The notes below the pieces were generated by a model. That model searched no databases. It had not been told where the DNA came from and saw only the letters and a program-made list of their open reading frames with translations. Positions 23,901 through 63,408 of a stretch of DNA of 64,000 nucleotides are shown here, piece by piece (positions within the stretch are counted from its first letter, which is position 1; the number at the start of each line of letters is the position of its first letter). Source of the stretch: Obrimoposthia wandeli (Eukaryota); the NCBI GenBank assembly GCA_977020255.1, contig CDROCS010000014.1:248001-312000 (forward strand), given 5' to 3'. Both the position numbers and the translations under genes were made by a program.

Positions 23901-24937
23901 ATTTGTGAATATAAATAAAACTTCAACTCTTTTACTGTATGTACTTCAACTTAAATGGCTGTAATAATCGACAACACTAAGACGAATAATTGGATATACA
24001 ATAACTGTAGAAGCCTCTTTAGAAACCAATTTACTCTAAACATATCATCGACTATGTACAAAAATTTGTTGAAATCGAAAAATAAAATGTTACATAACTT
24101 TGCACTATAAACTTAAAATATACTGCCTTCTTGTTTATTAGTCTAAGTTTTCAGTGACAGTTGAGTTACTTTCTCAGGGTCATGTAATTTTTATTTCCCT
24201 AAATTTGTCTTTCATAGTTGATACCATTTTGAATTCATTTCTGGATTTAATCGATATCTAATGCATTTTTATAAGATATTTTGTTGTTCTTTATTTGAAA
24301 TACTTATGTGACAGCTCTATTTAGAATAAGTTTGCGGGTTTGAATTGTTTATATAGAACAAATGAAAAATTCAACTTTCTCAACAGGAGCTCAGCGAAAC
24401 TAGCTTATGACTTTTAAGGAAATAAAATGAAATTGAAATAAAATAACAATTGTTCACCGCAATCATTAACACAGAAGATGCAGTTGGGAATTCACAAGAA
24501 ACTTTCGAGAAAATAGCCTGCATCAAAAGTATCGAACATAAGTAAACATTGTTAAATTTTGTTTTCATCTAACCACAATTTTGAAAGCAATACAGATTGA
24601 TTAATCCGCGGAAGTGTTGATCTTCACAATATTGGGCCATGTCAAACTCCCAGGGAAAACTGTCAGTACAAAGTTGTATATTGCCCAACCAAAACCCCGA
24701 CAAAGTTGCCCATATTTTGTATCATTATCCACATGATACCGGCAATGCTTTTAGCGCTGACATTTAACCACTCCTTCACTGTCTAGGTATCCTACTTTAT
24801 GTAGCTAACTGGGAGTTTGTATGTCGAGTCTGACATTTCAACAACTCTTGTATCACCATCATCCCAATCACATTTCCCATCAACATCGCCATCATCCCAA
24901 TTTTCACCACCAAATGAAGATATATACATAATGTTAC

Positions 24938-25094
24938 CTTTTTCTGTAGTCTGATCGACTCTCCTGACGCCTTTTTCCATTCCGTTTTGGCTTTCTTCGT
25001 ATCCTTGGTCCTCTCCTTGTCCAGCTGGTTGGCAAGTCGCTTCCATTCCTCCATCTTCTCTTGTACGGGATTCGCCAAGCTCGATACCAAATGT
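24938..25094 (-). CDS. MTSS1: MTSS1-like coding exon 4 (HLVSSLANPVQEKMEEWKRLANQLDKERTKDTKKAKTEWKKASGESIRLQKK)
   Basis: cgcag| acceptor and |gtaaca donor; 157 nt, phase 2 to 0. Matches LINPLQEQMEEWKKVANQLDKDHAKEYKKARQEIKKKSSDTLKLQKK. Confidence 0.95.
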
Positions 25095-28000
25095 CTGCGA
25101 GTTCATCGAAAATATTTAGAGTTTCACAAATTCATAAAAAAGTATTTGAAATATCTCAATAAATATGGTAAAAATATTAATCATTCGAAAAGTAAAATTG
25201 AGAACACAGGTTGCGTCCTCAAAGAAAATATTACAATGTACTGTCAAATTATTTGTCATTTTTTTATTATTGTATTACCGTAGACTTCAAAATCAATAAA
25301 ATTATTTTTATCCTTTAGGTAAAACTGAAAAATAAAAGACAACAATATTTTGACAATAAAAATAAAAGATTATAACATTATAGTATTTTGGAGGTCAAAT
25401 AAGAACGCTTAGACGACGAAATCGCAGGTCAAAGACTGGTTTATAAATCGTTTCTATGCTGAAATTTTAGAAAAATAATTTTTAAACAAATTTTATCACT
25501 TAGTGCGATTCCATTATTACAATGATGCGCGGACGTTTTGGAGTGGCCTTTTCTTAAGTAGGACGTTTCGGACTTTCAAGATTTTTTTTCCTAATTTTAA
25601 GATGTATAAGATATTTTGTCCATTTAGTTTAGTTGACGATAGTGTTCGTTCTAATAGTGTTTTGGTCAATTTATAGATTATATAACAATATATACACCAG
25701 GAAGTGATTCCAAAATTATTCCTTATTGTGCAAATAGTCATTTTCAAAAATTTTCTGCTGAAGTGAACCATACCATATAATAAATTCCTAAACTTGGAAT
25801 ATATTTGGGATTAACAGAAATCAATAAAAAAAAAACGTTTGCAACAATGAAGAGATTATTAATTCGAAGCATGGGCTGTTAGGCTTAAACAGTTTGAATA
25901 AATATTTTGTGATTGTGAATCTGTAAAGCAGAAAATAATGAATAATGATCCTGGTGTTTACAGTACATTGTAAATACGTATAGAATTAGACTATGCAATT
26001 AACATGCTACTGAAATAAATAATAATTTAAACTCTGGATTGTGTCCGGGCGGGTGATCTTGTTTTGTGGTGGTATATTGTCATAGCAAAGAGATATATTT
26101 AATGAGAAAAGATGTAACTACTTTAAACTAACTGCAATACTAACGCGAGCAATTATTAAATCATAACATTTTTTCATAATTATTTGTTGTTTAATCTTCC
26201 AGCATATTAATTAAATCGCTAGCAAAAAAATAATTGCACAAAGCCATTAGAATTACATTCAAATTAAAGATAAATACAAATGAATATTGAAGCTCCATTG
26301 GTTAAAATTAAATTAAAAATTCTACATATTATCAAAAATGTATTCTCACAAAATCTCAAATATGTATATCATATTCTCGAGCCTGATGCAGTGATCATGT
26401 ATATGCTTCTTAAGAGCAACAATGATGACTGCAGATTTGTCAAAATATTCTTAAATAACAAATTGTATGATGAAATATTTGACAGTATCGTCCGAATTTT
26501 TAAAACAATCAACCGATAGATATAATAAACTGTAACTAACACGACTCTATATCCTTCGCGATTTATTAAAAAATTATTTATAGTTTTCTTAAATTTATTA
26601 TGTAAACTCACTACTTTTATTTATAAGTAAAAATTTATTATCACTTAGCTTTTACTCTTTTCAATATTTTGAATAAATTACCAAATAAGTTACACTAAAA
26701 GAAAAATATGGTTAACTGAATAAATATTGATTATTTAGATCAAAGATTGTTGACAAATTAATGCTTATTGAAAAAGACTTCTTACAATTTTTTTGATTTT
26801 TTTTTGTATATCCTTTAATTTACCGGTTTATTTTTCGCAAGGCAAAAGTTGAAATTTTTTTATGATACTTCTTAAGTGCATTCACATAGATTTTTGAAAT
26901 ATTTTAAAATAAAAATATTGTCAATTTTTTCCACTAGATTTCCATAAGTGATTCAAAACTTACAAATGGAAAATTCTTTCATTTAATAATTGTTATTTAG
27001 AAAAACATTGATAAGTATTTGAAATAATTACAAATTAATTATAAATTATAAAGTAATTATTAATTCAAAAGTACATTGTAAAATTAATGTTTTATTTAAT
27101 ATTATAAATGTATACAAACATAATAAATTGCAAATATAAGTCAATGCAAAATCTTACCGATCATACATAATAATTAATACTATAATTAAAATATTATATT
27201 AACTTAGTTTAAAGCTTGGAAACTTCAATTATATGCTGTAAACAAATATTATGTAAACATAACAGATAATTTACTCATTAAATAACACAAGATATTTTAA
27301 CTACGAAATTGTCTACACCTAACATCAAAACAAATGTCAGTGCACAGTGATTTCCAAATTCTTAAGATTATTGCACAAGCGACGATATTATTTACTCGAA
27401 ATCATAATTACACAACCAGATTAAATACAACAAAATGTGATTTTTAACTTAAATTTTATGACTACTTATTAAAATATCACTATAACAATTTCGTGTATGC
27501 AAATATTGGTATTTTGAATGCACACATTCGATTGGAGTTTGTGAAATTGATAGGAGTACAAGAAGTGAGAAGAAATAGGCACACAAATCTCACTACTTTT
27601 AACCTGAGCTTGGACTGTGTGTATGCGTGGACTATAAGTCAAATATACACAACCTAAAGCAGCTGGAAAAGTAGAAATTGACGCTGTGTAATAAATCAAC
27701 TCTCTGGAGTCAATACAACAACAAGACGTGTATGGTGTGTCGATGAAATGCTGTTTTAAAGATGTTAATTACATTAGTCGTGATTATAGTCAGCAAGAAA
27801 TTGGCAATAGAATACCGACGGTCAAAAGTGTCGATTATTGCGTGAATATCAACGTAATTTTTGGTACAATGTGTAGTGTGTGTCACAGTGTATTACTCTG
27901 ATCGGATCAGTATACAAATTAAGGTGAAAACAGATTCAAAATGTCCACTAAAGAGAACTTGGCAACGACGTGTGGATGTTAACGAACTTATAAATCAAAT

Positions 28001-40131: not shown

Positions 40132-40398
40132 TTATTTATTCATATGATTAAAACAAGTAAATTTCAAATCGATGTTTGGTAAAATGTTACCCATTTTGTT
40201 TATGATTGTGTCCACTTTGCAATCAATAGCAATTAACGGTATTAATGTACCTTTTCGTTTTAGAATTACTCTACGTTTACCAGTTTTGCCTTTAGTACTC
40301 ACTAAATCAAGCAAAACCTTTTGATATTTTCTTAGGTTATTTTTATGATTACTGATTTTTACAGTACCTTTTGTAATATTAAACACCACTTCAACCAA
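40132..40398 (-). CDS. Small basic Maverick/adintovirus core-like protein
   Basis: LRKYQKVLLDLV...KRRVILKRKGTLIPLIA resembles the small Polinton ORF motif K-KILVQKGGFLPLL, recalled by eye. ORF starts at TTG in the track. Confidence 0.55.
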   Translation of the reverse strand: MVEVVFNITKGTVKISNHKNNLRKYQKVLLDLVSTKGKTGKRRVILKRKGTLIPLIAIDCKVDTIINKMGNILPNIDLKFTCFNHMNK

Positions 40399-40532
40399 CT
40401 TATCATTAACGAGGGTGAAAATGACTTGAGAATACGTGCTCTTTATATGCCTGGAGACTTGATTAAAGCCTGAAAGTAGGGAAGTGCAGATTTTTATATA
40501 ATATTTAATGAATTAAATTATTACAATATTGC

Positions 40533-40856
40533 TTATAGTTTAATCCATTTACCAACTAGTTTATTTACATGCTTTTTAATTATATTTTTAACCGACTTGT
40601 TATCTGTTTTCTTAACAGGTTTCTCCTTCTTTAATGGTTTCCTTGTTACCGGTTTCCTCTTTACTGCCTTTGCCGATTTCCTTAATGATTCATCGACTAC
40701 TTTACGTTGATGAAGCAATGATTTAATAAGATGTTTAATATGAGCATTCTTCTTTATCATCAACTTGTTATCATTTGCGTGTAATGTATAACTCGGTATC
40801 CATTTTGGTCCAACTCCACTGGGCATTGTTTCTTTCATAAATGACATGATTAACAT
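40533..40856 (-). CDS. Lys-rich hypothetical protein of the Maverick remnant
   Basis: 107-aa ORF; its ATG overlaps the ATPase stop (aaATGttaa), a virus-like coupling; basic C-terminus. Confidence 0.5.
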   Translation of the reverse strand: MLIMSFMKETMPSGVGPKWIPSYTLHANDNKLMIKKNAHIKHLIKSLLHQRKVVDESLRKSAKAVKRKPVTRKPLKKEKPVKKTDNKSVKNIIKKHVNKLVGKWIKL

Positions 40857-41339
40857 TTAGATATGCTTTTCTTTTGTTTATACACAAAATCCTTATTGAA
40901 AATATCGGTTCTCATGCGTAAATCATCTGGACATTCCTTTGTAAAATCTAAAAACAAGTATCCATGAGGGTTTGTCGTAGCATCTTGAAATGCGTCAATC
41001 AAATATTGCTTATTACAAGGGAAAGCTTGACGAGGAACAAAGTTTATAACCGTTTGATCTCTTGGATTCTTAAATAATACCAGATAATGAACATTTAAAT
41101 TCTGAGTACAGTGTTGACCGCCTTAATGAAAAAGATTTTGAGTAATAAAAATCACTGTTACATTCCTATGTCTGGCTATCAAAACCATTAATAAACTGAA
41201 TACCCTTAAATTTATCTAATTCTGTGCGTGTTAGACCAGATTCACCTACACCTCCGTAATGCCAGTATATTCTACCAAAAATTTGATTAAACATGCTTTT
41301 ATTTTGAAGTAATTTAGTTAAAATTTGAAACAGAAAATG
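40850..41339 (-). pseudogene. Polinton/Maverick FtsK-HerA (A32-like) packaging ATPase, truncated and frameshifted
   Basis: LLQNKSMFNQIFGRIYWHYG, then RHRNVTVIFITQNLFH*, NLNVHYLVLFKNPRD and AFQDATTNPHGYLFLDFTKECPDDLRMRTDIF, all diagnostic motifs. Walker A and B segments not found; one in-frame stop and one frameshift. Confidence 0.9.
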
Positions 41340-41547
41340 TTATATACATCATGTTTGAACGATTAATCTTAACGAATTTTTCAAAATCCTTTTCCCATTT
41401 GAAATCTCCATAGACATGGGTGCGATCAATTTCCTTTACATTATCACGAGAAAGTCCATTAAAACTAGAAAAGTATTGATCTCCATTTATTATTCCGTTT
41501 ATAATTTCCTCAACCGTACTATCAACTAATTTATCGTTTTCATCCAT
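41314..41547 (-). CDS. Hypothetical ORF or ORF fragment within the Maverick remnant
   Basis: 77-aa AT-rich ORF packed against the ATPase; no family recognised. Confidence 0.3.
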   Translation of the reverse strand: MDENDKLVDSTVEEIINGIINGDQYFSSFNGLSRDNVKEIDRTHVYGDFKWEKDFEKFVKINRSNMMYITFSVSNFN

Positions 41548-41577
41548 TTATATAAATCATACATTTCAATTGAAATT

Positions 41578-41680
41578 TTACATTTTTACTCTCCGATAAA
41601 CCATGCATCTGCATACTGGACATGAATGTAACATCATCAAATACTACTTCAATATGATTATTTAAACATACTACACATTC
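41578..41680 (-). pseudogene. IAP-type C-terminal RING finger remnant
   Basis: ECVVCLNNHIEVVF, then after a frameshift/deletion LHSCPVCRCMVYRRVKM*. These are the two ends of a C3HC4 RING; the central CGH-C-C part is lost. Confidence 0.65.
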
Positions 41681-42710
41681 GGTTTTTTTTAAAGTATGAA
41701 AGTATATTTTTATATTGTTTTTCAGGTTTCATTTCTAAATAAGATAACTCGCAAATCATTTCAAATTGTGATTTACATTTCACATATTTTTATATTTAAA
41801 AACAGATTTTAATATATTTTGTAAAAAAAACCTTTTCAAATATCTGATTTGGTTCGTATCCATCAACATATCAAATTTCTCTATTGATAAAGTATATTCA
41901 ATAATACAATCTGTTTCAATTTTCTCAATAACATTAGCATCCTAAACTATTTGAATAGCATATATTAGGTAATTTTATATCAATACATATGTTGGGTTAA
42001 ATAATTTATTTTATACATTAATTAATTAAAAAATTAATAAAAATTAATGAATATTTTTTAGTCAATTAAAATTGACATTAACTGAAGTGCCCACAGTCAG
42101 GGAGGTTTTACTTGTCAGCCTCCGACGGGGTGAGCGTCCCGTTTCGCCTTGCCAGGCTCGTCAGGAAGGCGGCAAAAAATGAGACGATTTTTAAAACAAA
42201 GTTTTCTTCTGCCCAACACTTTTGTCGGCGGTTCCTTTTGACTCGAGTGGATTCCAAGCCGATAACGTCAATCCGTGGATGCAGTATCTGCCGGTCACCA
42301 GATTCTTCGCCTCCTCGACATCCTCTTTCACCTTCCTCCTATTCCACAATGTCCATCGTCAGTCCATCTCTGTGTCTGACCTCACTGCACTTTAGCAACT
42401 TTCTCAGTCTCCCTCTGCTGCATCCTGCTGTTGCTACCGCCACTATCGCCTAATATCGCTGCCACTCCTTTTCCCCTCCTCTTGGCGTCCCCATCAGCGG
42501 CATGGATCGATACCGACGGGGATTCTTAATTCCCAAATTTGTGATGTTTCTGCACACACACACCGCGGTCTGTTGTTGATCGCTGTTGGTGTCGGTGTGT
42601 CTCTATAACAGTCGCTGATCTATTCTACTCTTGTGCGCCTGCTATAAAATTAGCACATTTCGACACCAAACAACATTACAGGATTTACTGATTTTAGATT
42701 TAGTTGGAAC

Positions 42711-42823
42711 AACAATTCGGAAACAGTTATTATCCTTTGATATTATTAACAATTTGGAAGCAGTTATTATCCTTTGATATAATTAACAATTCGGAAGCAG
42801 TTATTATTGTTTTTGATATTATT
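42711..42823. repeat. Tandem repeat, 3 copies of a 37-bp unit
   Basis: Unit aacaattcggaa(a/g)cagttattatcctttgatattatt at 42711, 42748 and 42785 (third copy 39 nt). Confidence 0.9.
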
Positions 42824-42856
42824 AACACATATACTTTTCTGATCAACGGTGATCTA

Positions 42857-43228
42857 TCAAAATAATTTATTATCATTAATTTCAATTATTGGTACATTTG
42901 AAACATTTAATTTTAAAAGAAATGGGCATGTAGGAAAAAACTTCATATGTTGCTTCATTGGTTTAAGATACCATTCCCAATCAGATAATGCATTTTGACA
43001 GTATATACATGTTACTTTATCGGTTGAATCATCATTATGTTTATAAAATCCGTCTTTAGCTAAATCACTTTTAGATTGTATCTCTTTAAAATTTTTAAAT
43101 AATGATTTCAATCTTTCACTTTCATGTCTATATTTCATAGGTAAAATTTTCATTCTAGAATATTCTATTTTTCGTCTAACTAAAACATTATTAACGGTTA
43201 TATAATGAAGTATATTATCAACGAGCAT
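42857..43228 (-). CDS. Single-BIR inhibitor-of-apoptosis-like protein
   Basis: Intact ORF (ATG 43228). RLKSL...LAKDGFY...VTCIYC-x16-H-x6-C gives the canonical BIR zinc-ligand spacing CX2CX16HX6C. Confidence 0.88.
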   Translation of the reverse strand: MLVDNILHYITVNNVLVRRKIEYSRMKILPMKYRHESERLKSLFKNFKEIQSKSDLAKDGFYKHNDDSTDKVTCIYCQNALSDWEWYLKPMKQHMKFFPTCPFLLKLNVSNVPIIEINDNKLF

Positions 43229-43280
43229 TTTCAAATCAAATCATATAAGAATGACAATTCTACTAAATAAAATGTATTGT

Positions 43281-43770
43281 TTATATCAAAAGTAAAATAT
43301 CAGTTATTGTCCAAGTCACATCAAAGTTATAATCCAAATCCTTGAGACCGAGTGTGACCACTTTCTCGCTTGCGAATATGTTGACACATAGAGGATTGTG
43401 TTTTGAAAATTTCAAAGCAGGAAACAACTCAGATTCGAACATGCATGCAGCTCCACACTTTTGAGACATCTTGTATAGGTTCACCGTCTTATCTAAATTG
43501 ACAGTAACCGTTACTGATTGAATACGCTCAATCTTTATTCTAAATGGATACTTGACCATAGTTGTAATAATTAGTTTCTTGCAACCCATTAACCTGCATG
43601 CTCCTAATAAAAATTACCTAACATAAATTATAAAACCTACCTGAGCGGAATATTATAAGGATATAATCCTTACACCTGCGCATGTACTGCCAGGGTTTCC
43701 CGGTTTTGAATGGGAAGTGACTGATATCTTCTTTAACTCTACCATTATAATTAATATTTGCAAAATTCCT
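43281..43770 (-). pseudogene. TBP-fold (TATA-binding-protein-like) gene with two exons (43770-43641, 43603-43281) and a 37-nt GT-AG intron; start codon apparently mutated
   Basis: Spliced product: repeat 1 ...YILIIFRSG|ACRLMGCK (TBP TALIFSSGKMVCTGAK); repeat 2 VNL...FESELFPALKF...VNIFASEKVVTLGLK (TBP YEPELFPGLIY...LLIFVSGKVVLTGAK). No in-frame ATG; AGG at 43770 sits where an ATG would be expected. Confidence 0.78.
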
Positions 43771-43830
43771 GTTTGAATTAATGAAAATAACCCACCCATC
43801 TATATATAATATTCATAAGCTAAACATTGA

Positions 43831-43907
43831 CCAATCAGAATCGAGTATGATGATATATAAGCTACCAATTTTCTTATACAATTCATTATTTTGATATGAG
43901 CTATAAA
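43831..43907 (+). promoter_or_regulatory. CCAAT box plus TATA-like boxes between divergent ORFs
   Basis: CCAAT at 43831, TATATAA at 43854-43860 and CTATAAA at 43901-43907, upstream of the plus-strand ORF remnant at about 43931. Confidence 0.45.
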
Positions 43908-43930
43908 CAAACTAAAACTCTCAAGTTCGA

Positions 43931-44551
43931 GATGCCAACACAAGGCTTGCGGATACAGATGAGGATACAGATGATGATGTAGTTTTCATATCAAAGCCTA
44001 AGAAGCAAACTATCTCAAGCAACAACAACAAACAATCTATGACTATCAAGTTTGAGAAGTTAACATCAAATGATGATCTCTTTATTGATGATATAGTTTC
44101 TACACCCAAACACAAGCAACTAACCGCTTCAAGCAACAACAATAGACAAGTAGCAGTAATATTAGAGTCTAATGATTTGAAGTTCACCAAGCCGGTTATG
44201 TTTTTTAACTGACAAATGAATTTCTCGAAGACTCCAATCTCATTTGGATTCATGTTTCCGGTGGCTCTGAATAAGTCAAAATATGATTTCAAGATGCATA
44301 GAATCAATCCGTCAGATATTGATGATCTCAACAATACTTTCGCGGTGATGCATCTCAACATCATAGTTGAGAATCTTATAATCATTCGAGCTGATCTTAA
44401 TCTCTTCAATCGAACTCATGACTTTAATGCCGACAAGATGGGAACTGGACTCAAGTGGATTATCGTCATTGTGATACAGGGCTACAGAATCAACTGTACA
44501 GATCTCCAGAAACCTCTCTGGAAAATTACTGATGTTCAAGTTCGCTTATGA
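43931..44551 (+). pseudogene. Disrupted acidic ORF with SIM-like motifs (DTDDDVVFISK, DDLFIDDIV)
   Basis: One frame from 43931 to the stop at 44551 with a single TGA at 44210-44212; the nearby ATG (43932) is out of frame; internal near-duplication KQTISSNNNKQ / KQLTASSNNNRQ. Confidence 0.5.
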
Positions 44552-44973
44552 TTGTTTTAATATATTCTATCAATGTTACTTTGCTTATAAACAATTTCTT
44601 TCTTCATCATATAATAATGCATAAACAATAACCTTTGCAAGATTAAAACAGCGATAGCTATCTGGTTATGCGGGGTAGTCTAATTCCTGGAATGGGGTTG
44701 TGGTACTAAGTAAATTAAATCTTGTAAATAAAAACTTGAAGTGGTTTAATTGTGTTTAATTTTAAAAATTTAAAATTTTAAATGTATCTACTGTAACAAA
44801 TTTAAATTTCAAAATCTACGCAAAATTTTATGTAAATACAAAATGTCTACATTAATTTGAATCTGCATGCAATTTTGAACTATATACATAATGTCTACGT
44901 AAATTTAACCTGCATAATCGTAATTGACGTATAATACTAATCTGTAGGATTGAATACATAAGGTGGCGGTTCA

Positions 44974-45120
44974 AAAACAATAGCACACAAAGCCACAAAG
45001 CACTACCCCTCCCCCGAACAAGGAACGAAAAACAAAGTACATCTGTATGACTAAGCGCATACATATATACTTTGTTCCTTGTTCCGGGGTATGAGGTAGT
45101 GTTCGTGTGGTATTGTTTTA
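44974..45120. repeat. Imperfect long inverted repeat (hairpin)
   Basis: Left aaaacaata..cacac..cactacc..ccccgaacaaggaac..aaagta pairs with right tactttgttccttgttccgggg..ggtagtg..gtgtggtattgtttt. Confidence 0.7.
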
Positions 45121-46549
45121 GTACCGACACTTTACCCTTCTGGTATGTTATTTATGATCACAGATGAAAGTAAAACATAGTATCAATATAATTGTTAGCC
45201 GCGATTGGACTATTCATACTAGTCGTTTTCATTAATTAAAATACTTTTCAAAATTTTATTATTTTATTTACAATATTTAAACAAATTTTGAGAAACTTCC
45301 ACTTTGTATATTCTAGTCTACATCCAAATGCCATGTGAATAATTTTTAGATATTTAAATTTTAGTTATCAAAAATTACATTCTTTTCAACCTTCTTACAA
45401 TAATGTTGGTGATGACTGTATAGTTAAATGTCTTCAGTCAATAGAGACAGGTATTGTCGTGGTATTTAAATACACTTAGAAACGTAATGATTCCATTTAC
45501 AAATTCTGAGATTCATCAAATTTATGATTTTTATCAGAAATCATAAAAATGCTGGAAACGGAAAGACTGATTATTTATTAATAACGGGTTCATTAAATAC
45601 ATAAAAAGGTTAAGGATATGATCCACTTATCTGGAGTTGCTGTTTCGCTATTTAGCTAATTTTTCTTTTTGCAGAATCGCATTAAAAATAAAGATATTTT
45701 TTACAACTATCAAAAATATTGATATCATTTACTTTTCATGTCCACTTTCATGATCTTTTAAAAATAAAACGCGTTTATTAAAGCAAATAAATTAAATACA
45801 TATTATTTTATATTTTTAAAATTATGTCAAATTTTTAGTAGTAGAATAAAGTTGAAATTGAAGGAGATTCTTAGTTAAAATTAATTAATTATATAATGGT
45901 ATGAAATAATTCCTCATTAAATTTATATATATCAATATTTTTATGATTTCGACCTAAACAGCGTTTTTAAATTTTTTTTCTAGTTAATTAATTGATATTT
46001 TGTCCTAATCATAGTCTTCTAATAAAACTTTCTGTTTCGTAAATTATTTTATTGCTCTTTTCTCTATTCTATATTGGGCTCTAACATTTCAAGAAAATAT
46101 ATCGCAATAAGATTATGATGTAAAATACCATTTAGGTTATCCAAACATATACTTTTATAAGGTTAGCTAATTATTGTAAAATATTTAGACAAATGAGTAA
46201 ATTTCACAAACTGAAATTCATTTATTCGTGCTTTGAGTGGGCTTTGACCAAAAGTGAATCTTCTTTTCTTTATTTTGAGCATTTTTAGTTTGTTAATCGT
46301 ATATATAATCATATTTAGCCCTATTCGTTTATAAATCACGCCACAATTCCTCAGTTTCCTTTATATTATCTATTTTCTTTTTGGCAAGATTAACTTTATT
46401 TATAATTTTTTTATAAATATGAAACACGTATTATTATTATCAAGTGAGAAATTCTAAAGATATTCTAAAGAAATAAAGTATATTATGTAAATGATGAACA
46501 CACCAGGTATTCATTTATTACACTCAATAGAATCTTTAATCATTGATGA

Positions 46550-47063
46550 TGCACCAGAAAACATCCAAACTGATGAAGGTAAAGAAGTTTACTCATGTTA
46601 AAAAATTATTTAAAACTAAAAATATCAATAATTATTCGATATATTCACAATAAAAAAGCTGTAGTTGAAATATTTAATAAAACGTTATGAAATTGGATAA
46701 AGAAATATTTTACTAAACGAGGTAATAAGAAATGGCTGAATGTATCACCAAAAATTATTTATACTTATAATAATTCTAAACATAGAGGTTTAGATGGCTT
46801 AAAACCTGTAAATGTAAATAATAAAAATGCATTTGAAATTTAGCTGGAAAGTACTCAAAGGAAAAGAAAGCTAAAGCAAAGTATAAATTGATGATTATGT
46901 TCGAATTTAAAAAATAAGCACAAGTCATTAAAAATGGAGTGATGAGGATTTTAAAATTCATAATATTAATTATAAACAAAATCCAATAATGTATATTTTA
47001 AAAGATATTGATAACATCATCATTAGTTCATTTTCAATATTTCCTGAACAGCTGCAAGTTGTC
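46550..47063 (+). pseudogene. Maverick/Polinton retroviral-type (c-)integrase, C-terminal part, degenerate
   Basis: PENIQTDEGKE..., KAVVEIFNKTL, KWLNVSPKIIYTYNNSKHR..LKP, YKIDDYVRI, KWSDEDFKIH, YILKD...EQLQVV; stops and frameshifts. Confidence 0.88.
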
Positions 47064-47103
47064 TACCGACCAAAGCAGGGATGTTGTTACGTTTATTGCA
47101 AAC

Positions 47104-47415
47104 TTAATCTCCGAATGCGTACAGGGTGCGACCCTGACGATTGAGATCGCAGACCACATCCATAGCTGTGACTGTCTTCCTCTTAGCGTGCTCGGTTTAG
47201 GTCACAGCATCACGGATGACGTTCTTCAGAAACACCTTCAGAATTCAACGGGTTTCATCATAGATGAGGCAAGAGATTCTCTTCACACCAGCTCTTCTTA
47301 CCAGACGACAAATGGCAGGTTTGGTGATGCCCTGGATGTTGTCTCGCAATACCTTCCTGTGACGCTTGGCACCTCCCTTTCCCAGTCGTTTACCTCCTTT
47401 TCCACGGCCGCTCAT
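47104..47415 (-). pseudogene. H4: Histone H4 pseudogene, full length, intronless
   Basis: [101 protein letters not shown]. 312 nt; premature stops at 47245-47247 and 47197-47199. Confidence 0.97.
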
Positions 47416-47727
47416 TTTCGATTATTGATTTGAATTAATTAACACTTCAAATCCAATTGCAAAAGTTGAAACATACAACAAAATTCTATTTTTTTCAAGC
47501 ATTTTTATTTTGTAAAACAATTTCAATTTAGAAGAAAATGCAACCTAGTTTGATTAAAATTCATTTGATTCGAATAAAGTAGAAATAAAAAAAAATTTAA
47601 GATTTTTGAAAGAAATCCTTAATTTTACAAGCAAAATAGAAAATAGAAATATCGTTGTTGTGATATGCTTAGATACAATTCTGAAATACCCTTCACCCAA
47701 AGTGATATGCCACCCAGATTGAATTTA

Positions 47728-51900: not shown

Positions 51901-53427
51901 TGGAGTGGTGATGGATTGATTGGGTAATTGTGATATAGGAGGTTTTTTGAAGAAGTGTACAAATATGACAGTACTAATGAAGAGTTAACATCACCAGTGG
52001 AGAAGAAAACGATATCTAATGATTAATGCTGGAAAAGTCAAGGTAAAATGAAAAATTAATGCTATAAACTAGATTTTGATATAACAAAGGCAAATCAGAA
52101 AATAAGAGGAACCTTTAAAGAACATGATCCCGTTTTCTTATTTGAAATTTTCTGGTATGTCACTTTTATACAAATGAATGTACACCAATCAAAAGTTAGG
52201 GCTCTCATCAGCAAGAAAGGCCATCATATTGAAAATGAATATTAAATATTAAATAACTGATTTATATTTTACTTTAAAATTGTTTTTAGCTATTAAATTC
52301 ACGTTTTTATAAAAATAATGGTAACTTCTAAATCCTTCATATTTTATGACACACTTTACGTCATCTTTTTGAGTTTGAACGTCCATTTCTTGCACAGTCT
52401 TCTATGCAACCAGTTTCCAATAAAATTTCTCATCACAATTTATTAACACGATGTTCAGGTGACTCTACATCAAATGTGTCGCATATATATTTACTTTTTT
52501 GAATTATAAATGGTCGATCATGTTGGATTTATCCCACCATAAAGCAGCTAATTAACGATATTCATAATTGTACAGACTTTTATCAGCCTTGACCAATCTG
52601 AATTGAATTTCTATGTTAATCAATATTATCATTGACACTCTATGTTAATCAATATTATAATTATGACACTTGTGCAAACCACGACACAATAAGTTAAGGC
52701 ATTAGTTACATTTGATATGCCTTTACATGAATTAGTCAAATTTATGAATTATATATTTTAAAGCAAATCGTATCGTTATAGTTATTGTACAGCTTTCGAA
52801 TTGTATATAATTATTAATAACTGTGTTAGTCACATTTATTCCTGCTTAAATTGTTACAAATCACGCGGGTTAAATACTATTATTGTTCAATCAATTAATA
52901 ACTGGTAATTATAATAATTTAAAGTGTTTTCTTCTGTTAAAATAATAAATTATGCTACTGAAACAGTTCAAAGCAGAATAAGGAACCTATTGAGACATTA
53001 AATAAATTAAGTAGGCAGTGAAGCATTAACAAGAGAACATAAGTAAAACGATTTTGCACAACTCTTTGTTCTATCGTCCAAAGCATTCCTAATCAGTTTA
53101 ACTCACAGTATGCACTTTTCTTATTATTCCCTCTTATGAAGTTTTTATTCAAAAAACGTCCCAATAAATGCATACATTTCCAATATTTGTTAAGGTATTA
53201 TTTGTTATTTTGGAAAGTTAAGTATATGGTTTATTTGAGCAGTTAGCTGTAGTATGATAATATTTAACATAAAATTTTCCCAAATTACTGCTGCAATTAA
53301 TTATAATGGATTCACTTCCTGAAGGGAAAATTATCCAATCAAAACAAGGTGATTTTAGTATATATAAATATTAAAACTGCTGACAGTCAGAAGTTTGCCA
53401 ATATCGGAGTGAAGGAACAACTGAAGA

Positions 53428-53777
53428 ATGTATGCTCTTTGTGGTCAAAGTTTACGAGAAGACAAACGACCCGATTTGTTGAAACTGATTAAACAGGATA
53501 AGCTAAAGGAGCTCAGGAAGTTCTTCGATGATGGACAGCTGAAACTGTCGGAATTTCTCGACTTCGAGATGTTGGTGAATGAGAAGTTGGACGCCGACTT
53601 GTTTTGCAAGTCAATCGACAGGAACATCTACGAGTACGTCAGCAAGAACCTCAACAGACCGCTGTCGTTGGCCACCATGTTCGGCTCGATACAGCTGCTG
53701 CAGTATCTTCTGCCTAAATGCACCGAGGACCATCTGAGAAACATTCTCATAGCGCTGGTCCTCGGAAGTCATTTGGG
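53428..53777 (+). CDS. TRPV-like channel, coding exon 1 (ankyrin region)
   Basis: ATG 53428 with an in-frame stop just upstream; ANK-like RPLSLATMFGSIQLLQYLL; donor gg|gtgaga (phase 2). Confidence 0.75.
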
Positions 53778-53895
53778 GTGAGATACTCCTGCATCTATTG
53801 GTGGTATATGGCCTTTGCCTCTGTGATTGAATAGATACGTCAGTAGATTATAAACGCATTATTTATTTGTCTCTCTTGCATGTTTTGCAATGCAG

Positions 53896-54577
53896 TCTTG
53901 TGCAACACAGTCGCGAGCAGAAAATCGTGCACTTGCTGGAGCGTCTGCAAACAGTCAATCCCGCCATAGACATGCGTAGCCTTGTCCTCGATAGCGTCTT
54001 CTTCAATCTGCGACCTTTGGAGCTGGCCCTGCTGCTGGGTCGTCTGGGCCTCGCCAAGGTCATCTGTGAGCTTCCTGGCGTCTACAGGGGCCCCACAAGT
54101 AGTCGGAAGCAGTGTGAAGGGCCACTCACCATGGAAACATATGATTTCTGTGAGTACTCGCCCTTCTACCGCGACAGCGACAGCAATAACGGTGACTCGC
54201 GCTTCTTCCTGAATCCGCTGCGGCTGCTCACCATGGTCAGCTACCAGAACTTAGCCACTCTCGAGATCTCTGGACTTGCCGGCCATCCGCTCGTCTCCTC
54301 GCTTCTCTGGACTCTGATCAAACGTAACCTGCCGCATGCAGTCTTCAATATCATCTCCACATTTGTGTCACTCTGTCTTTACCTATTCTTTCTCGCGCCC
54401 TCACATTATAGAGCCATCTACATCACCATCTATGACAATGCTCCCGACAATCACACTGCTCTGGGATCCACTACACGCTTCTGCAACGAAAACAGGTCTG
54501 TCTTCACTGCTGCCGCAATTAGCAATAGAAACACCAACAACAGCAACCAATTCGGAGATGTCCCCAGCGTATTCAAG
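53896..54577 (+). CDS. TRPV-like channel, coding exon 2 (last ankyrin, linker, S1)
   Basis: tgcag| acceptor, phase 2. LRPLELALLLGRLGLAKVI (TRPV last ANK), GP..METYDFCEY (GP..LYDL.E), HPLVSSLLW (EPLNRLLQDKW), then a TM segment. Best phase-0 donor is AAG|gcgagt. Confidence 0.82.
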
Positions 54578-55563
54578 GCGAGTAATAACTGCTTCATTTA
54601 GATTTATTGCAACTTCATTTCAAAAATAATCTCAGACAATAAAAGATCTCTGTACAGATGATTTATGAACCCCGTTGAGTCTGGGTTTTCGAAAATTTGC
54701 ATATTAGAACTACATAGAATGATAGGGAAACATGAATATTACTTTTTCGTTATCTATTCAGATCTGTTGATTGGTACTAAATCTACACATTTCAAACCAC
54801 CACAAAAAGCCAAAAATAAACCAGCTTTTATGTGAACGTTCTCACCAAAACAAGAGTTTAAGTCAGAAGTTAAACAACTTGCTCTACACCTACACGTTTC
54901 TTACATAACCACCCTCAAACTATTTCAACAGCATTGTTAGTCGTGGATACACTTGTAATGTTTATCCATGAAACAAACGATAATGGTTATTAATATTAGA
55001 AAACATTGACCGAATTGTACTGGAATCTAGCTTTCTTTTTTGTTTTAGTTAGTCAATTATTGTTAAAGCTCTTCGTTTAGTCGCCGATATTTTAGATTCA
55101 TATTTGAAAAAAAAATCCAAATATCAATACATTCCTTCGCACTTTTTATTGCAGGGATTGTATACAAAATTTCTTCACTTGAACGTTTCATGTTGACTTA
55201 ATCATTAAATTAAAAATAAAATAGGCTGTTTGGTGCTGATATAGGTAGCAGTGGAAAGTTTCATCATTTTAAAGGAAGTAACAGAAGTAACTAACATTAA
55301 ATATATTTGTAATCGAAAAATGAAGAAACTGATTTAAAATACTCACTTTAAAGCAATAGAATTTTCCTCTGCGAATTAAATTGAATTGATTTTTTTAATA
55401 TATTTCTATACATTTTTTACTCGATCGCTATCTCTCTCTTATAAGCAAAAATATCATCGCATAGAAAATAGCACTTTCCAATTTCAGTAAACACTATAAA
55501 TGCATATAGAATAGATATCTTAAAAATAGTGAATTCAGATATTTATACTGAAACTTCTCTCAG

Positions 55564-56023
55564 ATCGGTTACTGTAACTCTGCTTCTCACATTAAGGAAT
55601 GGATCAGCACTCTCAAAATCACGGATGATCGTCCAAATATTATTATGAACTGCCTATTTTCTGTCAAATACCTTCTGGATGTCATCGTCATGTTCTGGGT
55701 CTACTGGAAAAACAAGCTCTCAACCTGTGCCATGATCGATAGGAATGAATTTGTTGGTACCAAGAGCAAGCAAGTCATGCATATTTATTTTGCACTGTAC
55801 ATGAAGACCGCCATTCTTCTGCTCCTACTGTCACTGTGGGTCGTTTTGGCAATGGAAAAAAAAAGTATTACAGCGGGATTCTTCTGGAGACTTCAGCTGT
55901 TTGACTTCCTAAACATCCTGATGGCGGGTCTGCTCATCTTCGACTTTCTCTATCAGATCAGCGTACTACCCAGGATTGGAAGCGTCATTCAGAGACTTCT
56001 GAGATCATTCAGCGTCTTTACAG
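55564..56023 (+). CDS. TRPV-like channel, coding exon 3 (S2-S4 and S4-S5 linker)
   Basis: ctctcag| acceptor, phase 0; several hydrophobic segments; LPRIGSVIQRLLRSF (S4-S5 linker-like); donor ACAG|gttggt (phase 1). Confidence 0.8.
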
Positions 56024-56334
56024 GTTGGTACAAGACAAAATATCAGCCAAATACAGCATATACATTTCTCAGTAATTTAATGATTATTTATAATCAATCA
56101 GATCTATTAATTATGAAATTATACAGGATGTTCAATAAGTAGCTTTACAACTTTGAATTTAAATATTTTTATTATTTTATTTTACTATATTGCTTTGATA
56201 TACATTATTGCCTTAATTCATTTTTGCCATATTTTAACATAGGTAAATTAAAGGATTCTTGGGTAAGATATTAACAATACAAGAAAGAATAAAAGTTATA
56301 GAATACAAGTATAAGATCGAATTTTATGAAGTTT

Positions 56335-56800
56335 AAAAATGAAGCATATTTCCATTTATCTGGTTGTGTAATCGTCATAACAGTGTTTGTTGATATAAAA
56401 ACAATTCACACATAATACCAATAAAATAAGCGACCTCTCCTGGTTCCATTGGTTGCAGAGCCATTCACATTAATTGGAACGTTTTTCTTTGACAAAAAAT
56501 ATGATTGGTAAAAGTTATGTAATGATGCTAAATGACTGGTTTCGCTATTTGTTCAATTTGCTTGAAAATGATCAAAACCTATAAATGATACGTGATGTTG
56601 CACCTAGACGTTACTCAATTTATGTAAGAACATGGTTAGATGATAATTTTGAAGGCCGTTGGTTGGACGGATATGTGCACTAGGATGTCCAAATTAATAT
56701 CCTGACCTCAGTCTGATGGATTTTTATTTGTTGAATAACATCTAGCATGGAGTTTAAAGCACCGATTTCTATCTCTCGATCAATTAAAAAATACGAAATC
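56335..56800 (+). mobile_element. Tc1/mariner DD37D (maT/Tc3-like) transposase fragment in a TRPV intron
   Basis: NEAYFHLSG, IGTFFF, VRTWLDDNFEGRWLG, PDLSLMDFYL; many frameshifts. Confidence 0.75.
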
Positions 56801-57050
56801 ACACGTACTTTTAATATGATATCTAATGAAATGTGCAGTCACATGTGCAATTCATTGAGGGAACGCATTGAATGATGCATACATGCCGAATGAAACATAT
56901 TGGAACATTTATAATACATATATGTACTCTTTATAAACTGTGCATCATGGTTCAATAATATATGGATTTTGAGCTATATTATCTTGAAATCATAAAATTA
57001 CTTATTGAACCCCGTATAATGTATAAATGTGCCACGACTCTTCAATTTAG

Positions 57051-57475
57051 GAATGTCAATCCTCTACTTCTGTTCTCTTATCGTTTTCGGAACCCTCTTC
57101 TTTAACCTGATGCCCTGTCTGCGATTCAAGCGCTATGTTCGTGGAAACAATCTCATTTCGAGCTGGATTGTCGTATTCCACTTGAATCTCAACATCGTGG
57201 ACTTCAGTGACGAAGAATTCGAGCGCATTTGGATCCTACAGGTTTTTCTTGTGTTGGTTTTACCGTTCTTTGTGCTGAACTTCATCATTTCAGTCATCAA
57301 CGAAGAAGTCAACACAGTCTCCAGTCACAGTGACTTGTTCTCGAGACTCTACTGCATGAACTACTTCCTCAGTAACGATGCCATCTTCTACTTTCCCCCG
57401 GTTCGGTGGTTCTGCATCAACATCCTGAAAATGAAGCCCAAAATTGTGAAAGTTCTTATTTCACGTGAAATTTAG
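57051..57475 (+). CDS. TRPV-like channel, coding exon 4 (S5, pore, S6, TRP-box region)
   Basis: tttag| acceptor, phase 1. VLNFIISVINEEVNTVSSHSDLFSRL matches TRPV [26 protein letters not shown]. The 3' end could be the stop at 57475 or a splice to unseen exons. Confidence 0.82.
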
Positions 57476-60410: not shown

Positions 60411-61778
60411 TTTACCACATGATCAAACGACTTTAATGATTAATAGATGATCAAATGACAAAACGTGTAAAATTGCTTCAAAAATAATATTAAAACAAAA
60501 CATTTTTTTAAAAAATTGGCGGGAGGCTCAATATTTATTTTTTTAAAATTAATTTACTACTAAAATATTTTCAGTCTAACTTAACTTACTTATTTGCAAA
60601 AATATAGGTGAACCAATAAAGTCAGAATGCATCAGAGTGAAAGAAGAAAAGAAGTAGATGGAAAACAATGAGTCGCTATTATTTTTTGTGATCTTATGTT
60701 GTAAAAGTAGAAAGTATTTAAAAAAATGACAATTAAGTTTTTAAGTTCGTATATAAAATTATTTTTATATTTATTTATATCATTTGTTGACGAAATGGAC
60801 TGTGGAAGCCATTTCTCTCAGTCATTCATATACATAAATATAAAACTTTACTCGTTGTTATATTAACGGAACAATGAGCAATGTGTACAATGCAATTTAG
60901 TTATGAACTGTAATTTTTACTATTGATGACGCTGTAACCCTAAAAAGATGATTTTTATAGAAAAAACATTAAATTATGCATAGCTTTCATTCGCCAACAT
61001 CCCCGATTGCGTTTCATTAAAATGTAGGTAATGGCTAATACCACCCAAAGCATTTAAATGAAGAGTTTATTAATGAATCATGTCTTGAATGACGAGGTAA
61101 CCTTGATTGTGGACGATTTGCAGCTTTGTGAAAATATTTTCCAATACAAATTTATTAACGTTACTTCAGCTTTTAGCCATTCTAAAACTTCTTAGATCGA
61201 ACCTAAGAAAACCAGAATAACGAACGAGCCCCTGGGTTAGAGCCATAAAGAGCCATAAACAAGCCCAATTTACTTGACTAATCATTAAGTTATAGTCCGT
61301 GTCAATAAACTAATATATGCGAAATTCTTTCTACGACTGTTTACAAAGGCGCAAATATAACAATCCCTAGAGAAGTGATCTTCAAAGACACTGAGATAAA
61401 TATCTAATAAATATATTTTGGATGATTAAGTAAAACTTGGAGATTAATTTTTGCATAAAATAAACATAAGTTTGAGGAAGTTATAAAATATTATGTTATT
61501 TTGTATGATGTCTGTTGAATGGTTGAATATTTTCAATAAGAAAGACTCAATTAATTCTGAAATATTTGATAAAATAGTTGTGCATACGTATCAATATATT
61601 GACGACATCTGACTCCAACAAACACAATGGTCAGTAATTCGTCCGTCTCATTTAGATCATTATTAACGACTCGAATAAATATGGAAATCTATGCTATATC
61701 GTTTATATTTGTATTCTTGTCATAACAACATGATCAAGAGTAGGTGGATGTGTCCGGTCTAATCCACACCCCCTCGCC

Positions 61779-61854
61779 CCTTGTCCTTTAAAACCGTGCA
61801 TGTGTGTGGAGTGAAATTTCACTACACACACATGCACGGTTTTAAAGGACAAGG
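61779..61854. repeat. Loopless palindrome with 38-bp arms and one mismatch
   Basis: ccttgtcctttaaaaccgtgcatgtgtgtggagtgaaa|tttcactacacacacatgcacggttttaaaggacaagg. Confidence 0.95.
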
Positions 61855-61928
61855 GAAGGGGTCCCAAAAATTTTTTCGCGCCTTTTGGTGCGAAAGGCTC
61901 GGGACTCGTATATGTCACAGACTAGCTT

Positions 61929-62364
61929 CGGTGATGGGCGAATGTCTCGCTCTTGTGTATATCACTAACTACCTCGGGTGATGGGCGAATGTCTCGCTCT
62001 GGTGTATATCACTAACTACCTAGGGTGATGGGCGAATGTCTCGCTCTCGTGTATATCATGGGCGAATGTAATATCACTAACTACTCGGCAATCGAATGTC
62101 TCGCTCTGGTGTATATCACTAACTACCTAGGGTGATGGGCGAATGTCTCGCTCTCGTGTATATCACTAACTAGCTTGGGTGATGGGCGAATGTATCGCTC
62201 TCGTGTATATCACTAACTACCTCGGGTGATGGGCAAATGTCTCGCTCTGGTGTATATCACTAACTACCTAGGGTGATGGGCGAATGTCTCGCTCTCGTGT
62301 ATATCACTAACTACCTTGGGTGATGGGCGAATGTCTCGGACTGCTGTATATCACAGACTTCCTT
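61929..62364. repeat. Tandem array, about 9 copies of a 47-bp unit
   Basis: Unit gggtgatgggcgaatgtctcgctct(g/c)gtgtatatcactaactacct(a/c/t); one rearranged copy near 62058-62095. Confidence 0.95.
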
Positions 62365-62490
62365 GGGTGATGGGTGAAAGTCGACGGGTGTTGGGTGAAA
62401 GTCGACGGATGATGGGGGAAAGTCGATGGGTGATGGGTGAAAGTCGACTGGTGTTGGGTGAAAGTCGACGGGTGTTGAATAAAAGTCGGT
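62365..62490. repeat. Tandem array, about 6 copies of a G-rich 21-bp unit
   Basis: Unit gggtg(a/t)tgggtgaaagtcgac; shares its first 10 nt with the 47-mer. Confidence 0.92.
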
Positions 62491-62769
62491 GTTAGGCGTT
62501 AGGCTGGTGGTGGTTAGTAGGTGGATGTGTCCGGTCTAATCCACACCCCCTCCCCCCTTCTGTCCTTTAAAACCGTGCATGTGTGTGGAGTGAAATTTCG
62601 TGTAGGTGTGTAGAAAACTTTTCTACCCCCCCATCTCAAACACTCAAAATAAATAAAAAATAATAACTCCATTTAACACCCTGTAAATTTTAAAATCTCA
62701 TAATGCTCCCAAAATTTTGATTAAAGTCCTGAGAGGCCAAAAAAATGGCCAAAGCGTGCCCTACGGGCC

Positions 62770-62837
62770 CGCGGTGGATCAACGAGTAATAAATACAGGC
62801 TCGCGGTGGATCAACGAGTAATAAATACAGGCTCGCG
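62770..62837. repeat. Exact 32-bp tandem duplication
   Basis: cgcggtggatcaacgagtaataaatacaggct at 62770 and 62802. Confidence 0.95.
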
Positions 62838-63059
62838 AAAAATTATACGCGAGAAAATGACCTTAACTTGACCTGAAATGAGTTCATTAATTTTTTATAC
62901 CATCCAAACATGTACATTTTTTTTTTTTTTTTTTTTAAAAAAAATATTACTATTTTAAATCCAAATATTAACAAAATTTAAGAAAATAACATAAATTCTT
63001 TGAATAATACGTTTTCATTGGACGTTAAACTTATACAAGAAAATCTTAAGAAAATAGTT

Positions 63060-63324
63060 ATATTTTCGAATAAAATATGTTTTATCCAATGACATTCCAG
63101 CATTCAAACATAGTTAAAAAATTGAGAAAAGCCTACTGATTTTCAAATAAATTATTTGAATACCCAGCCCTCATTGGACGACAAAAGTTTAGTGATATAT
63201 TTTCGAATAAAATATGTTTTATCCAATGACATTCCAGCATTCAAACATAGTTAAAAAAATGAGAAAAGCCTACTGATTTTCAAATAAATTATTTGATTAA
63301 CCCGCTCTCATTGGACGACAAAAG
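63060..63324. repeat. Near-perfect tandem duplication with a 137-bp period, carrying CCAAT/ATTGG boxes
   Basis: Copies start at 63060 and 63197 (atattttcgaataaaatatg...cattggacgacaaaag). Confidence 0.92.
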
Positions 63325-63346
63325 AGGGGTTAGTCTATTATTTTTG

Positions 63347-63354
63347 TATATAAG
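63347..63354 (+). promoter_or_regulatory. TATA box of the 63409 ORF
   Basis: TATATAAG about 55-60 nt upstream of the ATG, preceded by repeated CCAAT/ATTGG boxes. Confidence 0.55.
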
Positions 63355-63408
63355 GAAACCTCTTCATTATTTTTTCATAAATCAAATATCAATAATCAAG
63401 AAGCAAGA

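Follow-up and report, generated by a model that had tools for sequence, protein, structure and literature searches.

The 64-kb window analyzed here (C14:248001-312000, the whole stretch of DNA studied, from the AT-rich 1.35-Gb assembly of Obrimoposthia wandeli) contains the decayed end of a Maverick/Polinton element, family A, which carries a gene for a small protein with the fold of the TATA-binding protein (TBP). Comparison with intact copies, with the other Maverick families of this genome (families A-E) and with metagenome loci (n = 60; loci bear L-numbers, as do the family-C loci L224-L235) suggests that this protein, mini-TBP, activates the capsid and packaging genes of the element by reading an TATAAACA box upstream of them, an early-to-late switch to which we assign a probability of roughly 60%.

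Full-length family-A copies are ~15 kb long and numerous in the genome, as seen from the flanks of 20 copies chosen by the window fragment, and they end in terminal inverted repeats (TIRs) of ~550-600 bp with the termini AGAAGTGT...ACACTTCT (AG...CT type). A cargo-blind sample consisted of the next 20 of 40 matches from a genome search made with the DNA polymerase (PolB) only. Nineteen of these 20 copies carry both the TBP-like gene and a gene for an inhibitor of apoptosis protein (IAP), with one internal deletion and one copy retaining half of the TBP gene, and the 6-bp target site duplication (TSD) is exact in 14 of the 15 two-ended copies and has a mismatch in the other. This near-constant presence in a sample chosen without regard to cargo marks the TBP-like and IAP genes as genuine genes of the element, inside its TIRs. 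A preliminary description of the window had proposed a Maverick/adintovirus lineage with such cargo and had suggested looking for the cargo inside the TIRs of several copies, where the TBP-like and IAP genes are indeed found; the refuting outcome that it had named, copies lacking the cargo, did not materialize for these two genes.

PolB is recognized in one family-A copy by PF03175 (E 7e-24), with open frames of >1500 codons in some copies, and N-terminal PolB pieces gave no Pfam match to an OTU domain. The integrase lies inside the TIRs (rve, E 5e-12, plus Chromo) and is missing from the window fragment. The ATPase frame spans 225 codons in intact copies, which also show a Walker A motif; its Pox_A32 match is weak (E 0.0036) and falls below the cut-off. 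The capsid protein reaches an Atlas score of 0.97 to double jelly-roll (DJR)-like clusters, in which 22-30% of members carry PF21738; its Capsid_N match is weak (E 0.017), and it has no PDB sequence match. BIR and TBP domains are likewise recognized in the family-A copy that yielded the PolB match. Protease and penton, with no Pfam or PDB match, are provisionally placed by position and known motifs, and the GasderminX/pX-like open reading frame (ORF) of an intact copy matches Adeno_PX (E 4e-4) and has no PLA2 match. Eleven young copies are mutually 95.6-98.4% identical, the window copy is at 80-89%, and single-copy variants look neutral, as expected after insertion.

Some further features of these elements may be recorded. 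A conserved small ORF that begins Met-Gly and bears a Cys-Cys motif (possible lipid anchors) occurs in families A, B, and C and at loci L090 and L122; it is read in a different frame from the integrase, whose 5' end it overlaps, and an TATAAACA box of its own goes with it. The family-A copies on C454, C238, C1856, and C1334 contain trinucleotide arrays (150-680 bp) of two repeat classes. Family-A copies have inserted into other Maverick families (window 45139-45524; C904, C3038, and C1911), and Maverick genes directly flank 2 of 15 young family-A copies.

The TBP-like gene is not recent cargo and is part of a conserved ~150-aa family. Homologues with 44-67% identity number 97 among 100 candidates, with 61 family representatives at E<=1e-30, and the gene is present in families A-E, being carried by every family encountered with virion genes. 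A Maverick core gene lies beside it at 23 of the 60 metagenome loci, most of the others being 1-3-kb contigs. The TBP fold noticed at the outset is confirmed in the window itself by PF00352 (E 2e-7, 43284-43613). A model of one homologue, P0001 (pLDDT 96), aligns with human TBP over 144 of 144 residues (Z 14.5, rmsd 2.2), and its bipartite saddle is complete, but repeat 1 is helix-free (residues 1-60). With cellular TBP and the TBP-related factors (TRFs; PF00352; PDB 5fur and 1mp9), as with the TBP-like factors of nucleocytoplasmic large DNA viruses (NCLDVs), mini-TBP shares this saddle, an EPELF-type stirrup, and FxxGK strands, the EPE motif being at least 95% conserved within the family. Identity to cellular TBP is 22-29%, and cellular TBP differs in having two helices in each repeat and four intercalating Phe residues; F39, F98, and F114 of mini-TBP are conserved and by numbering presumably equal three of these, with no Phe at the fourth position. 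The DNA-face positions of mini-TBP are invariant, yet unlike those of cellular TBP, and Arg and Asn are invariant at two positions familiar from altered-specificity yeast TBP. NCLDVs differ in having their own RNA polymerase.

Among metagenome pairs, dN/dS for mini-TBP is mostly 0.1-0.35 (range 0-0.44, with one close pair at 1.25). In a quick tree of 120 columns, with an untested root, 62 rows of the mini-TBP family form a branch apart from 16 cellular rows (SH-aLRT 100); 13 representatives and 4 loci missed by the cutting pattern were dropped, and the host TBP was left out. Recent capture of the host TBP, which stands outside this tree, is not supported by it.

A GT-AG intron interrupts the FxxG-CRIMG strand of the family-A gene (GT 38/38, AG 37/38), with ten lengths between 34 and 45 nt and nearly fixed flanking exon spans. 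A phase-1 intron of different sequence occupies the identical position in families C and D and at 1 of 45 metagenome loci (L122), and the TBP-like genes of families B and E have none. Splicing of the mini-TBP mRNA by the host is predicted from these signals, and the position shared by four lineages points to nuclear transcription by host machinery. Introners are known in dinoflagellate Maverick-like proviruses (PMC11957031); here, in contrast, the intron position is fixed across lineages.

The case for linking mini-TBP to late genes lies in their promoters. In a family-A copy, nine genes or gene regions are preceded at 30-55 nt by TATAAACAA or a one-letter variant of it, a motif absent before the TBP, PolB, and probable single-stranded DNA-binding protein (SSB) genes and the TIR-proximal ORF. 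When ATAAACA was scored at -60 to -25 of starts in 29 elements and contigs, it was found for 40 of the 54 starts of virion/packaging genes and for 1 of the 38 starts of TBP, PolB, and SSB genes. By gene, the counts are 11/12 for the ATPase, 10/11 for the GasderminX-like gene, 9/11 for the major capsid protein, and 6/10 for the post-protease ORF, with 0/28 for the TBP-like gene, 0/3 for PolB, and 1/7 for SSB. Canonical TATAWAWR occurs at 7 of the 54 virion/packaging starts versus 15 of the 38 others (13/28 for the TBP-like gene), and the host background for the box is ~1% per search window. Across 16 elements, 55 of 151 box sites precede an ORF (6.2 expected), and box-to-ATG spacing clusters at 33-41 nt within an imposed range of 25-60 nt. 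Where the box lies within coding sequence it fixes synonymous codons in five cases of five (8% expected), and for the integrase it lies farther up: four of five lineages have it 31-38 nt ahead of the small ORF that overlaps this gene. Fifteen of 19 TBP-like promoters have a TCA 29-30 nt behind the canonical TATA. The conserved family, purifying selection among its metagenome homologues, and a matching promoter box support the earlier suggestion that the lineage has a transcription module of its own.

In the switch that we envisage, canonical TATA/CCAAT promoters would allow host RNA polymerase II (Pol II) to transcribe the genes for mini-TBP and the probable SSB, and the mini-TBP intron would be removed by the spliceosome of the host. 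Mini-TBP would then bind TATAAACA through its remodeled saddle. TBP recognizes the 5' half of its box with the C-terminal repeat and the 3' half with the N-terminal one; in mini-TBP the remodeled repeat 1 would face the C at position 7, and repeat 2 retains both Phe residues and the acidic stirrup. That conserved stirrup may recruit host Pol II, in a protein without the convex-surface helices bound by host regulators, and the BIR-RING protein, encoded behind a box in family A, would act late and postpone cell death, probably through ubiquitin ligase activity. For the broader proposition, that of a widespread animal Maverick clade with a virus-style two-step program run by one 150-aa TBP of its own, in which host Pol II makes the mini-TBP mRNA (spliced in some lineages) and mini-TBP then steers the polymerase to capsid and packaging genes with TATAAACA promoters, we see about even odds.

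A Pfam search for a TFIIB-like partner in four unassigned family-A ORFs and nine metagenome neighbor ORFs, a weak test, gave no match. As a separate observation, the host has several TFIIB/Brf-like (PF00382) loci (C1245, C1124, C1202, and C3153) and TBP/TRF loci (C238, C968, C60, and C1092), and two PF00382 loci inspected are exon fragments, Brf-like in appearance.

Several findings weigh against the switch. The gene classes were drawn after family A had been viewed and the lineages are related, so that p-values are overstated. Penton has a box in range in only 4 of 10 cases, and the integrase (0/7) and PZ (3/9) both lie outside the contrast. Canonical TATA is lacking at 23 of the 38 starts classed as early, including all three of PolB, and a box lies near one family-C and one metagenome SSB start; the family-C IAP gene has a canonical TATA-like site instead of a box. 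A search for an initiator behind the box gave no clear peak, and purifying selection on the family-A TBP exon is not significant (dN/dS 0.83, 10 shared variants). Three viral-contig scans confirmed no TBP-less Maverick as a control, so that dependence of the box on the gene is presumptive; the best PF03175 matches in the genome are family B, which carries a TBP-like gene. A distant PolB was also noted at C2657:52900-56200 (24-47% identical to families A and B, no virion genes nearby). Finally, ATAAACA is also a forkhead site.

The box could accordingly be a promoter read by a host factor, whether TBP/TRF or a forkhead protein, with mini-TBP doing something else, such as titrating TFIIB or the TATA boxes of the host in the manner of a decoy. 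The box is one position off canonical TATA, ATAAACA fits the forkhead consensus, the host has several TBP/TRF genes, and mini-TBP lacks the two repeat-1 helices. We nevertheless consider this unlikely, as a box at none of 28 TBP-like starts, with canonical TATA at 13, is the pattern expected for a factor needed first, and as the DNA-face positions of mini-TBP are invariant and different from those of cellular TBP.

Two other roles for the box seem improbable to a similar degree. It may be a late promoter belonging to a large DNA virus that acts as helper and whose polymerase transcribes the element, as in virophages; shared promoter motifs are a topic of virophage papers, and NCLDVs encode TBP-like factors of similar fold. 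However, a GT-AG intron conserved across four lineages speaks for transcription by nuclear Pol II, and the element retains its own TBP-like gene under purifying selection. Alternatively, the box may signal polyadenylation or termination for the gene that precedes it in a tandem array, given its resemblance to AATAAA, its overlap with the upstream stop codon at 10 of the 55 sites, and the two sites that follow the last plus-strand gene in the window. Against this, 10 of 55 sites lie at least 25 nt inside the upstream coding sequence, 10 of 55 have no upstream ORF end within 400 nt, and spacing to the next ATG clusters as described even allowing for the imposed range.

A function of mini-TBP in replication or packaging rather than in transcription, in which it would bend or mark the TIR together with the SSB, is very improbable. 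Many lineages have its gene next to that of the OB-fold protein, the inner edge of the TIR also contains ATAAACA, and rolling-circle initiators distantly share its fold (Z 6-7), but the acidic stirrup, which binds TFIIB in cellular TBP, is retained, and most boxes lie before genes, not at termini.

Mini-TBP, the putative reader of late promoters, is accompanied in family A by the IAP gene product. The BIR domain listed in the preliminary description is present in the window (PF00653, E 7e-14, 42860-43240), as is the RING, which meets the Pfam threshold only in intact copies (PF13920, E 3e-11). They had been taken for separate ORFs, a view that we reject since they share a single frame in intact copies; together they form one 299-aa gene, split in the window copy by an ~840-bp repeat. 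The full frame is retained in 11 of 36 family-A copies, and dN/dS is 0.41 (p 7e-4) for family-A variants common to at least four copies. Family C has a separate BIR-RING gene of 341 aa, 38% identical. Because none of the 60 metagenome loci, mostly short, has an IAP match, we regard the IAP gene as lineage cargo. Its best database relative is only 26% identical, and capture of the host's best-scoring BIR gene, presumably of the single-BIR survivin type, is not supported by sequence comparison (35% identity over the BIR).

The element protein shares the BIR zinc ligands and C-terminal C3HC4 RING of BIR-RING IAPs (the baculovirus type, XIAP, DIAP1, and NAIP) and differs in having one BIR and in lacking their acidic pair. 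Compared with solved BIRs (NAIP and DIAP1), this pair, which precedes a conserved proline, is replaced in families A and C. The pocket to which it belongs binds the IAP-binding motif (IBM) in BIRs; canonical IBM or caspase binding by the element BIR therefore appears doubtful from its sequence, and ubiquitin ligase activity is a safer inference than direct caspase inhibition. The anti-apoptotic role first suggested for it is putative. Family C (C760, C173, C757, and C753; L224-L235) additionally has a dual-specificity phosphatase-like ORF (PF00782) along with its TBP-like gene, with the same intron position, and other cargo in TBP-bearing metagenome Mavericks includes an E2 ubiquitin-conjugating enzyme (L090:222-719), a leucine-rich-repeat protein (L109:1918-3327), and a RING protein (L122:1710-2168).

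The ORF across the divergent promoter from mini-TBP, described earlier as resembling a carrier of the SUMO-interacting motif (SIM), is probably an ssDNA-binding protein, judging from its structural model. The motif itself is at chance level, being present in 22% of 2000 shuffles of the ORF, and was discarded. In intact copies this is a single ORF; conservation in family B and at 20 of 60 metagenome loci covers its C-terminal 115 aa. The model (pLDDT 82) has an oligonucleotide/oligosaccharide-binding (OB) fold with the T7 gp2.5 and Enc34 SSBs in the top ranks (Z 6.1-6.4); 104-106 of 112 residues align with these two, level with other OB folds, gp2.5 giving Z 6.4 over 106 residues (rmsd 3.2), the best BFVD hit has E 0.02, and an Atlas search returned no match >=0.9. 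T7 gp2.5 and Enc34-type SSBs share the OB fold and differ in the placement of the acidic region, which is N-terminal in the element protein. An SSB suits protein-primed strand-displacement replication. A ~190-aa conserved ORF that follows the TBP-like gene in L107, L109, L111, L117, L118, L123, and L132 may be a distant OB-fold SSB; its hhalign probability against the SSB (L109/L118) is 2.8%.

The window copy of family A is older, decayed, and one-ended. A genome DNA search dissects the region: 40147-45150 is repeated on many contigs, 41987-42827 is repeated independently, and 45150-47500 travels with neither. A Pfam profile search was run on 26 window ORFs; the ATPase, RING, integrase, and H4 pieces had no match there and were recognized by homology to intact copies. 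The features are as follows (strand given where assigned).

40147..45141: family-A Maverick/Polinton of which the right-hand third remains, cut by another repeat at 40147, with the other two thirds gone; 80-89% identity to many genomic copies
40147..40194, minus: start of the small MG...C[CF] ORF, truncated; in full copies it overlaps the integrase 5' end
40186..40517, minus: GasderminX/pX-like virion accessory ORF, frameshifted (tblastn; Adeno_PX E 4e-4 in intact copy)
40533..40856, minus: lysine-rich basic ORF, function unassigned
40853..41339, minus: A32/FtsK-like packaging ATPase remnant with two internal deletions, 87% identity to the intact family ATPase
41314..41547, minus: small ORF, 77 aa in the window copy, function unassigned
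41543..41985, minus: 3' part of the IAP gene, damaged RING (PF13920 E 3e-11 in intact copy)
41987..42827: independent ~840-bp repeat inside the IAP gene, foreign to the element, with matches on many other contigs (best 40 of 2183 candidates scored)
42828..43228, minus: IAP gene, 5' part, encoding a single BIR that has its C-C-H-C zinc ligands (PF00653 E 7e-14; alignment to solved BIRs)
43277..43285, minus: TATAAACA box upstream of the IAP start; additional boxes at 40874-40882 and 40196-40203
43281..43603, minus: mini-TBP exon 2, end of repeat 1 and whole repeat 2 (PF00352)
43604..43640, minus: predicted GT-AG intron, 37 nt, from the sequence
43641..43770, minus: mini-TBP exon 1, from the sequence, start codon missing in the window copy
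43771..43895: divergent promoter region between mini-TBP and the OB-fold gene, with TATATA-type boxes on both strands flanking a CCAAT box
43896..44551, plus: former SIM-like ORF, acidic N-terminal part and conserved OB-fold domain, with a frameshift and a stop in the window copy
44621..45141: right TIR with internal palindrome (44959-45135) and terminus at 45141, from copy alignments
45139..45524: family-B Maverick remnant (PolB region) directly adjoining the family-A terminus, from sequence comparison
46504..47023, plus: remnant of a family-B integrase, beyond the TIR of family A, with 37 further matches among the 40 scored
47023..47439, minus: host histone H4 pseudogene with two stops and a frameshift, not element cargo

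The ~840-bp repeat is not found at the IAP site of other aligned family-A copies.

Beyond the terminus, the preliminary description had read the ATPase and integrase remnants as bracketing one element. Both remnants are present, and they do not bracket one element, because the TIR terminus at 45141 separates them. The integrase remnant belongs to family B: it has the opposite orientation and 85% identity to family B, versus 67-70% to the family-A integrase. It does abut the H4 copy, as had been noted. Among its 37 matches, 35 stop at 47023, where H4 starts, one stops at 46998, and one runs 16 nt further; none continues through H4, and no poly(A) tail was seen at the junction. H4 is a decayed host relic and an unrelated neighbor. 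The window H4 is 91% identical to intact host H4 genes on C3359, and is absent from 40 other family-A stretches, 4 family-B stretches, and the 60 metagenome loci, so that the chromatin module once attributed to the element falls away and H4 as cargo, lying outside the terminus, is rejected. A protein search finds H4 at 16 places in the genome, where first-look PolB candidates number ~24,000. A single element carrying TBP, BIR, RING, SIM, and an H4 chromatin module can be dismissed: its parts are physically adjacent in the window and Maverick genes lie within ~1.5 kb at 3 of the 16 H4 places, but the terminus divides the parts, H4 is in no element copy, the three H4 copies concerned have unrelated flanks, and local Maverick density (matches in 43 of 162 overlapping 3.4-kb windows of an 84-kb neighborhood) explains the proximity.

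The window H4 matches the C3359 genes from ~20 nt before the start to ~85 nt past the stop, an AATAAA lies downstream of its stop, and the two C3359 copies also diverge at the same 5' point. Elsewhere in the window are a host IMD/MIM-domain exon (24797-25102, minus strand; PF08397), a long, nearly intronless host membrane-protein gene (53425-57475, plus strand) with no Pfam match, which we would liken to a TRP channel, and a composite repeat (61730-64000) with tandem units of 47, 21, 32, and 137 bp, relatives of which have inserted into Mavericks on C1696, C1725, and C3223.

Among described systems, adintoviruses stand closest to hand. Starrett et al. 2021 (PMC8502044) describes for them the same TIRs, 6-bp TSD, pPolB, packaging ATPase, and rve integrase with chromodomain as in family A, along with a DJR-like capsid and a GasderminX/pX-like ORF, both of which probably have counterparts there. 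IAP homologues are reported there in adintoviruses, an adintovirus OTU on PolB was found by structure prediction, and the Terrapene-class virion module has GasderminX with a pX-like tail and no PLA2X. Two supplementary maps carry an 'SSDBP' label, and a 'TBP' label appears in the Fig. 5 legend, which covers MELD viruses and related elements. The suggestion of an undescribed lineage is borne out only partly, the IAP and a TBP label on related viruses being in print in that paper. The available text differs from what is seen here in describing no conserved TBP family, promoter box, or intron, and no description of the mini-TBP family, box, intron, or switch was found in the literature searched, which excluded most subscription papers.

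The herpesvirus TBP mimics ORF24, UL87, and BcRF1 (beta/gamma) offer a parallel, as they too belong to viruses without an RNA polymerase and combine a TBP-fold protein with a noncanonical, TATA-like late box. They differ in being large multidomain proteins that act in a six-protein complex reading TATT, whereas mini-TBP is a bare saddle of ~150 aa with an TATAAACA box and predicted binding. BcRF1 and the UL87 domain appear as weak rows in the fold/profile comparison of mini-TBP, and by analogy the early-to-late switch would best be read as a convergent resemblance.

Mini-TBP bears on the expression of Maverick/Polinton capsid genes and on whether these elements have a viral program at all. The particular contribution of this locus is the intron together with two IAP-bearing families. 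Mini-TBP and its box predict where late transcripts start, and a minimal TBP without two of the helices bears on which TBP surfaces are required for Pol II initiation. If the proposal is true, mini-TBP would rank as the smallest viral switch for late transcription known so far, and as a TBP whose specificity has been altered in nature.

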